The position numbers and the translations under genes are program-made. Positions 27,464 to 27,586 of a stretch of 56,715 nt of DNA are shown piece after piece. A model generated the notes under the pieces. That model worked only from the letters and a program-made list of their open reading frames with translations, had not been told where the DNA came from and did not search any database. The DNA comes from a virus. Taxonomy: Duplodnaviria; Heunggongvirae; Uroviricota; Caudoviricetes. The stretch lies in the IMG/VR virus record IMGVR_UViG_2622736468_000005, one strand, 5' to 3'. Position 1 is the stretch's first letter, and every line of letters begins with the position of its first letter.

Positions 27464-27586
27464 ATGTTAACTGCTGCCTGGTTAACATTTGCTGAAAAAG
27501 CCTGTTAACATTTTTTCCGCACAACAAACTGAATAATAAAGATAAAAACCGCAAAAATGCCCGGGCAGCCAGTTAACATGTTAACT
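27464..27586. repeat. cluster of GTTAACA-type motifs upstream of terS (candidate terminase recognition / cos-pac region)
   Basis: Five occurrences of (T)GTTAACA(T) within ~120 bp between HNH gene and terS. Confidence 0.4.

Follow-up and report, generated by a model that had tools for sequence, protein, structure and literature searches.

The small terminase G1P of the headful (pac) Bacillus phages SF6 and SPP1 binds repeated boxes that flank the pac cleavage site. In phage lambda, the small-terminase protein gpNu1 binds cosB (R3-I1-R2-R1), a set of short repeats situated between the nicking site cosN and the gene of the small terminase; these repeats carry the specificity, while cosN is shared among related elements, a logic which satellites exploit (PMC6739421). 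In phage HK97, the best-studied cos phage of the HNH type, cos is preceded by the gene of the HNH endonuclease gp74 and followed by terS and terL as the first genes, the cohesive ends are 10-nt 3' overhangs, and the small terminase TerS (gp1) recognizes one 15-bp A-tract site, located at +15 to +29, shortly after the cut (PMC11331095). Here we describe a cluster of GTTAACAT repeats between an HNH endonuclease gene and terS in a 56,715-nucleotide Caudoviricetes sequence (IMG/VR record IMGVR_UViG_2622736468_000005; 'the window' denotes this whole stretch), which probably constitutes the cosB-like half of a cos site.

As in lambda, several repeats are found between the predicted cosN and the small-terminase gene, and specificity would likewise lie in them. 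The unit of the window, however, is an 8-mer built on a palindromic hexamer and arranged as one 18-bp palindrome plus three further copies; lambda cosB has a site for integration host factor (IHF) between its repeats, whereas none was detected in the window; gpNu1 belongs to a winged-helix family, whereas the TerS of the window has a Terminase_2/SF6-like helix-turn-helix (HTH); and lambda has 12-nt 5' overhangs, in contrast to the predicted 10-nt 3' overhangs, with HNH involved, of the window system. As this TerS is of the Terminase_2 type, the element would be cosB-like in its working and not homologous to lambda cosB/Nu1. The gene arrangement is that of an HNH-dependent, HK97-like module, with HNH immediately upstream of cos and terS-terL, and the predicted 10-nt 3' ends, the proposed TerS recognition DNA just downstream of the cut and the A-tract near the cut would likewise recall HK97. 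HK97 TerS nevertheless uses one 15-bp site and channel-threading, whereas the TerS of the window is of another family and would face five dispersed 8-mers extending from +32 to +155. With G1P it shares both the protein family and the N-terminal DNA-binding fold (4zc3), yet here the SF6-type TerS occurs in a cos/HNH system with predicted defined cohesive ends.

The repeat cluster and the predicted cut

The cluster occupies the 288-bp gap between the HNH gene (27678-28043, minus strand) and terS (26826-27389, minus strand), both confirmed by Pfam, and comprises five copies of GTTAACAT at 27464-27471 (minus), 27481-27488 (plus), 27504-27511 (plus), 27572-27579 (plus) and 27578-27585 (minus), numbered 1 to 5 in this order. 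Copies 4 and 5 make up a perfect 18-bp palindrome at 27570-27587, and copies 1 and 2 each form the core of one arm of a perfect 12-bp inverted repeat (27460-27471 and 27481-27492, 9 nt apart), in agreement with an earlier note on this DNA which had reported five GTTAACA-type copies, some as inverted pairs, in this gap. Outside the cluster, 2 more GTTAACAT copies occur in the 56.7-kb window, the expectation for the whole window being 1.54 +/- 1.27, and the maximal number of copies per 130 bp was 5, compared with no more than 2 in 1000 first-order Markov versions of the window. The bare GTTAAC hexamer is itself over-represented (23 in the whole window against 10 expected), and the 8-mer cluster is far above this background. 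Elsewhere in the window, GTTAACTGGTTAAC is found near the other prophage end (52285-52298), with its hexamers 8 bp apart as in the cos palindrome, and a direct repeat of GGTTAACT with 21-bp spacing is located at 43341-43369.

The position of the cut was derived from phage Lys8385Vzw (MT225100), whose TerS is 95% identical to that of the window. From sequencing of its induced particles and PhageTerm analysis, its authors reported a cos phage whose cohesive ends are 3' overhangs, with the 10-mer CGCCCCCCCT closing the record (PMC7946995). The Lys8385Vzw record ends with ...GGACACCGCCCCCCCT and starts with CTCACGCAGAGAAAAAATTCCCGTTTCAGGGCAGTTAACATGTTAAC, a junction that corresponds to 27618|27619 of the window on the minus strand, and the 10-mers of the two differ at one base. 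By this homology, the physical left end of the packaged window prophage is predicted to start at 27618 and to read down the minus strand, and the predicted cut lies 32 bp from the palindrome, on its HNH side. With the Lys8385Vzw ends mapped here, every repeat falls between cosN and terS. Cos-type packaging, which the earlier note had proposed from the HNH-terminase pair, is thereby supported, and the ends, which that note had allowed might map elsewhere, land next to the cluster. Its placement of the packaging site at 27464-27586 holds for the cosB-like repeats and fails for the predicted cut itself, which is outside that interval. In the direction of packaging, the stop codon of the HNH gene is followed by a G-run, the cos core with the cut, the palindrome, a 58-bp spacer, three repeats and, 74 bp further on, the start of terS:

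27662-27672, no strand: conserved G-run, reading CCCGGGGGGTA on the minus strand; it lies ~40 bp upstream of the cut and marks the outer limit of what phage and satellite share
27597-27634, given as minus-strand sequence: cos core GGACACCGCGCCCCCTCTCACGCAGAGAAAAAATTCCC, including an invariant A-tract; hardly varies across both TerS clades and over more than 20 genera of Enterobacterales
27619-27628: predicted cosN cohesive-end 10-mer, CGCGCCCCCT on the minus and AGGGGGCGCG on the plus strand, by homology to CGCCCCCCCT of Lys8385Vzw
27570-27587, no strand: palindrome CAGTTAACATGTTAACTG, formed by motif copies 4 and 5; spans +32 to +49, counted from the predicted left end
27512-27569, no strand: A/T-rich spacer with T and A tracts, 58 bp; a satellite keeps its length, the sequence having diverged
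27504-27511, plus strand: motif copy 3 (GTTAACAT), invariant in all relatives
27460-27492, no strand: inverted repeat GCAAATGTTAAC-9 nt-GTTAACATTTGC, motif copies 1 (minus) and 2 (plus), inner edge of the phage-satellite homology

The reading that we favour, and consider the probable one, is that this cluster serves as the cosB-like half of cos, namely as an array directly downstream of cosN that is recognized by the N-terminal HTH domain of TerS. TerS oligomers would bind the palindrome and the three further copies ~60 bp on, while the A/T-rich spacer would probably let the DNA bend or wrap, intrinsic A/T-tract bending of the spacer being only a possibility. Bound TerS would then bring the HNH endonuclease and TerL into place at the invariant core, a staggered cut at 27619-27628 would leave the 10-nt 3' overhangs, and packaging would run leftward through terS. 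We infer TerS as the protein that binds the repeats, and likewise its stoichiometry and the bending or wrapping of the DNA. A literature search combining GTTAAC, terminase and cos returned nothing relevant, and no description of the repeats was found in it; what had been published for this cos is the 10-nt end of Lys8385Vzw alone, and most likely the repeats are an ordinary kind of element that had not previously been described for this very common phage group.

Two further observations concern the surroundings of the cut. One IMG/VR contig (IMGVR_UViG_2681813226_000009) starts with TCTCACGCAGAG..., one base off the published left end of Lys8385Vzw, which is consistent with an assembly break at the physical end and may also be a coincidence. 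In relatives of the short type (see below), an extra GTAAACAT/GTTAAC element followed by CGATCG is present on the HNH side, ~26 bp upstream of the cut, and is degenerate in the window (GTAAAAAACGATCG, 27640-27656); it may be a second TerS contact or a termination (cosQ-like) contact which the long type has lost.

Motif conservation, satellites and TerS clades

In an alignment of 40 unique close variants, all of the long type, the 38 motif columns are invariant throughout, whereas 68 of the 281 other columns vary (Fisher p = 8e-5); the test is conservative, as 20 of the invariant non-motif columns were fixed by the search pattern. When the segment bounded by the A-tract and the last repeat was compared with more diverged loci, all 38 motif positions were identical to the window in L281, L142 and L255, whereas the other positions agreed at 72%, 64% and 66%, respectively. 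L281 is a phage locus with a TerS 65% identical to that of the window and has the same layout with six GTTAAC copies; a gapped pattern detected no further loci of its kind in IMG/VR. The motifs, whose conservation in related phages the earlier note had left to be checked, are thus invariant in close variants and diverged relatives alike.

L142, an IMG/VR match, carries the cos core and all five repeats with no terS after and no HNH before them, and belongs to one of two satellite-like families found at the same chromosomal site:

L142 1-11730 and L276 2402-13400 (NZ_CP145707.1 3356008-3367006): L142-type satellite-like element, ~11 kb, at tRNA-Pro between yejM and yejO
L371 3446-11944 and L372 2816-11944: sibling satellite at the same tRNA-Pro site, with its cos at ~9860-10000

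The L142-type element is present in 45 of 5426 complete Escherichia coli genomes. It encodes an integrase, an HTH protein, Ash, an Icd-like protein, DUF4222, a D5-type primase, SSB, PerC, a gpE-like capsid protein and a gpD-like decoration protein, and no terS, terL or HNH gene is found in it. Having no terminase gene, it could be packaged only by the terminase of a helper and should therefore retain just the cis-acting signal. Its cos is placed at the far end of the element with no gene downstream of the repeats, and its homology to the window begins at the G-run, which occurs in the satellite and in all relatives aligned, and stops right after the fifth, last repeat, the spacer having the same length of 58 bp. 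These limits suggest a functional cos of ~27460-27672, repeats included. L255, a second satellite variant with different flanks, exhibits the same pattern of motif conservation. A cis-acting signal so delimited (core plus GTTAACAT array) would tell which DNA these phages can package and would offer a compact, testable cos cassette for transduction assays.

The N-terminal domain of TerS was predicted by AlphaFold as a four-helix HTH domain, with a predicted local distance difference test score of 92-96 for residues 1-55, which are nearly invariant across the clade of the window TerS (clade 1). Foldseek retrieved the DNA-binding domain of the SF6 small terminase as best match (4zc3, template modelling (TM) score 0.85, root-mean-square deviation 1.6 A; 2cmp, TM 0.82), and also matched TerS to the full-length small terminases of SF6, PaP3 and NV1. 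A sequence search of the PDB gave only weak matches (E about 0.2), and confirmation of the domain came from the comparison of folds. The window TerS thus has the N-terminal HTH domain of the Terminase_2 (SF6/SPP1 G1P-like) family.

A second clade of TerS, found in a Hafnia phage and in E. coli and Salmonella satellites, is ~45% identical to clade 1, starts with M(A)LTxKKKxFA and carries KGW/CQL in the predicted recognition helix. Clade-2 loci have the same cos core, together with AAAAGTTACAC in 1, 2 or 4 copies at the same offset. GTTAAC is present in 83 of 83 unique clade-1 loci and GTTACAC in 0 of 83, while all clade-2 loci have GTTACAC (the repeat type of L285 and L286 was checked by eye). 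A core that stays constant and a repeat that changes with TerS is the pattern expected if the core is recognized by TerL and HNH and the repeats by TerS. The suggestion of the earlier note that the repeats are plausible small-terminase binding sites thus gains from two sides: a satellite devoid of terminase genes keeps the motifs, and the motif changes with the TerS clade. The locus would then provide a second, independent example of cosN/cosB modularity, in which the natural specificity variants GTTAACAT and GTTACAC are paired with TerS variants.

The L371-type satellite encodes its own clade-2 TerS (162 aa) and, like the E. coli clade-2 satellites in general, neither TerL nor HNH. Its cos combines the unchanged core with two AAAAGTTACAC repeats in place of GTTAACAT, and its 307-aa protein resembles the capsid part of the protease-capsid fusion of the helper. 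The two satellite types share the integrase, DUF4222, the primase and a 93-aa protein (89% identical). We tentatively put forward, as an idea somewhat more doubtful than not, that these sibling tRNA-Pro families, as satellites of Stx (Shiga toxin)-type lambdoid phages, exploit the repeat array as a packaging-specificity code. The L142-type would copy the complete cos of the helper with its five GTTAACAT copies and do without a terminase gene, whereas the L371-type would keep the helper core and bring a TerS paralogue together with matching GTTACAC repeats, redirecting the TerL and HNH of the helper. Such a TerS swap would be the cos/HNH counterpart of the TerS strategy of the Staphylococcus aureus pathogenicity islands (SaPIs). 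The cos phage-inducible chromosomal islands of E. coli (such as EcCICFT073) and SaPI TerS likewise combine the cosN of a helper, a cosB-type element and a DNA-binding partner encoded by the satellite (PMC6739421). EcCICFT073 targets lambda/phi80 by means of Rpp and a different cosB, whereas the candidate satellites described here would target an HNH/Terminase_2 module. They point to satellites that may parasitise Stx phages and are the more novel by-product of this analysis; if the array did act as such a code, Shiga-toxin phage production in many module-bearing E. coli would be open to satellite interference.

Origin of the array and competing explanations

A profile of TerS relatives brought up 22 full-length loci, spread over more than 20 genera of Enterobacterales, and a scan of IMG/VR with a cos-core pattern added ~110 further loci; a contig scan with a single TerS query had given no match, whereas the profile scan succeeded. 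The core GGACACCGCGCCCCCTCTCACGCACAGAAAAAATTCCC is common to all loci recovered by profile and pattern. In most relatives (L006-L027 around position 2001 and ~54 unique IMG/VR loci), terS starts ~40 bp after the cut, inside a (near-)palindrome GT[A/T]AAC-ATG-TTAAC, which in some of these short-type loci is perfect (GTTAAC-GTG-TTAAC). Of 54 unique short-type loci, 51 have TTA as codon 2 and 53 have ACA as codon 3, whereas codons 4, 5 and 7-10 show free synonymous variation, indicating that the hexamer is constrained beyond its encoding of Met-Leu-Thr. With the start codon inside the palindrome, binding of TerS would overlap its own ribosome-binding region on the DNA. Where terS starts with ATGCTGACA (Pantoea, Morganella), the spacer that separates cut and start holds copies of GTTAAC or ATTAAC instead, and in more remote relatives (TerS starting MALTDKKRRF...) GTTAAC directly precedes the terS ATG.

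The palindrome of the window is the positional orthologue of the terS-start palindrome of the relatives (compare TTCCCGTTTCAGGGCAGTTAACATGTTAACTGG with TTCCCCTCTGGAGGGTGTAAACATGTTAACAGC). The Shine-Dalgarno sequence has decayed at this position, and the real terS start, GTG CTG ACA, is located ~190 bp further on and is free of the motif. As an evolutionary interpretation of these alignments, the ancestral state may have been a single (near-)palindrome over the terS start, GTAAAC-ATG-TTAAC (M-L-T), and the lineage of the Stx phages would have gained a lineage-specific expansion of ~190 bp with three more copies, probably through duplication of the terS 5' region. Such a duplication is a plausible origin, since copy 2 of the satellite with its flank (ATGTTAACAGGGCAGAGG) matches the short-type terS start (ATGTTAACAGGGCAGAAG) at 17 of 18 positions. 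As for short-type cos phages with determined ends, a search of the phage database matched FSL SP-016 alone, a partial record. The pattern GTTAACATGTTAACTGH was discarded as a filter against the Stx-phage type, as the site is palindromic and the pattern thus matched that type on the other strand, along with unrelated low-GC phages. In such low-GC phage contigs (L217 ~4100-4340, L219 ~6850-7090 and L226 ~2610-2850), arrays of TTAACATGTTAACTAT present the same 14-mer in another context, possibly as operator or origin iterons.

Several points weigh against taking the cluster for the TerS recognition array. The physical ends were taken from a relative, Lys8385Vzw, by a read-based method (PhageTerm), and both TerS binding and a packaging role in this phage group are drawn from sequence comparison. 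Clade 2 amounts to four to five independent contexts, and the co-variation therefore comes from a small sample. As ATGTTAAC encodes the TerS N-terminus M-L-T, conservation in the short type is in part coding. As terL of the window is frameshifted, the cos site here would act only with a terminase supplied in trans. Furthermore, the invariant A-tract AGAAAAAATT at +9 to +19, common to both TerS clades, could be contacted by TerS as well as, or instead of, the repeats.

This last point leads to the alternative that survives best, although we consider it unlikely: the repeats would be bound by another packaging component or by a host factor (HNH, TerL or a DNA-bending nucleoid protein), and TerS would read the A-tract in the manner of HK97 TerS, whose A-tract site lies 15-29 bp from the cut (PMC11331095). 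The TerS encoded here, however, is a Terminase_2 protein with an SF6-like HTH and belongs to another family than HK97 gp1. The repeat becomes GTTACAC exactly where TerS changes clade, with the core unchanged, and the satellites with the changed repeat encode TerS and neither TerL nor HNH. With regard to a nucleoid protein, the intergenic region 27390-27677 contains no match to the IHF consensus WATCAANNNNTTR with up to one mismatch, which leaves IHF-assisted bending as in lambda unsupported. The A-tract may be an additional TerS contact, but an HK97-like mode would leave the co-variation of repeat and TerS unaccounted for.

We see a slim chance that the extra copies are non-functional, undecayed relics of duplications of the terS 5' end (ATG-TTA-AC = Met-Leu-Thr). 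This origin fits the orthology of the palindrome to the ancestral terS start and the match of satellite copy 2 with its flank to a short-type start, yet origin does not settle function: flanks have diverged by 28-36% while all 38 motif positions are identical in three lineages (at the flank identities, a per-lineage chance of ~0.72^38 = 4e-6 or less), no reading frame that is kept contains any of the copies, and all five persist in a satellite whose packaging DNA is reduced to the cis-acting part. It is very improbable that the repeats are an expression element, since the sigma-70-like TTAACA-18-TAACAT with upstream TG (plus strand, 27482-27511), from which copies 2 and 3 might form an antisense promoter, is a 9/12 match built from the motif itself with a spacing of 19 in the satellite and L281, and was rejected, and since the inverted repeats, which could fold as RNA hairpins controlling terS translation in the late transcript, yielded neither an Rfam match at E<=1 nor a terminator-like site, are direct in other subfamilies, so that no hairpin is conserved, and are kept by a satellite without terS or any downstream gene.

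The prophage and its packaging genes

The recognition array that we favour belongs to a lambdoid (Stx-phage-like) prophage of the BP-4795/2851 type, whose late genes HNH, terS and terL are on the minus strand, in the same order as in BP-4795 and 569R3, where they are annotated alike. Stx1a-, Stx2a- and Stx2c-converting phages of the BP-4795/2851/YYZ-2008 type share 95-99.6% identity with the region, and among 5426 complete E. coli genomes 1276 contain the 241-bp segment 27440-27680, with as many as 7 occurrences in one genome. The packaging module is thus very common in E. coli and serves many Stx1a, Stx2a and Stx2c phages. Its genes, in the direction of packaging, are:

27678-28043, minus strand: HNH endonuclease gene, 121 aa, last gene ahead of the cos site; Pfam PF01844, 31.1 bits (cut-off 21.4), PHROG 589, E=1.8e-44, and BP-4795 annotation
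26826-27389, minus strand: terS, 187 aa, GTG start; Pfam Terminase_2 (PF03592), 36 bits (cut-off 26.1), residues 2-57; Shine-Dalgarno sequence GGGAGGAGG at 27392-27400
25169-26829, minus strand: terL, disrupted by a 1-bp deletion in a C-run at ~26563-26566; 1661 bp against 1662 bp
23168-25105, minus strand: prohead protease-major capsid fusion, late gene after terL

The large terminase of the window is thus not intact. Pairwise alignment with terL of vB_EcoS-569R3 and BP-4795 revealed the deletion as a change of CCCC to CCC, which splits the open reading frames (ORFs): TerL is truncated after ~100 residues, a second ORF restarts at 26527, and in the longer ORF (25169-26527) the nuclease domain alone was detected (Pfam TerL_nuclease). 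This reflects either a defective prophage or a homopolymer sequencing error. Unless it is such an error, the prophage cannot cut or package its own DNA, and its cos site could be used by the terminase of co-resident prophages of the same type. A defined cis signal would explain the possible mobilisation in trans of defective copies such as this one.

Two minor observations concern the vicinity of the HNH gene. A small DUF3950 gene (PHROG 949, function unknown; 28085-28285, plus strand) is placed on the opposite strand in the interval between the lysis genes and HNH, a position that is also conserved in BP-4795 and 569R3. In the PPompW prophages (LC567818, LC567822 and others), the IS110-family element ISEc20 is annotated under or beside cos on the HNH side of the G-run, at a site adjoining the equivalent of 27667-27677 of the window, and may represent a site-specific insertion that disrupts HNH or cos.
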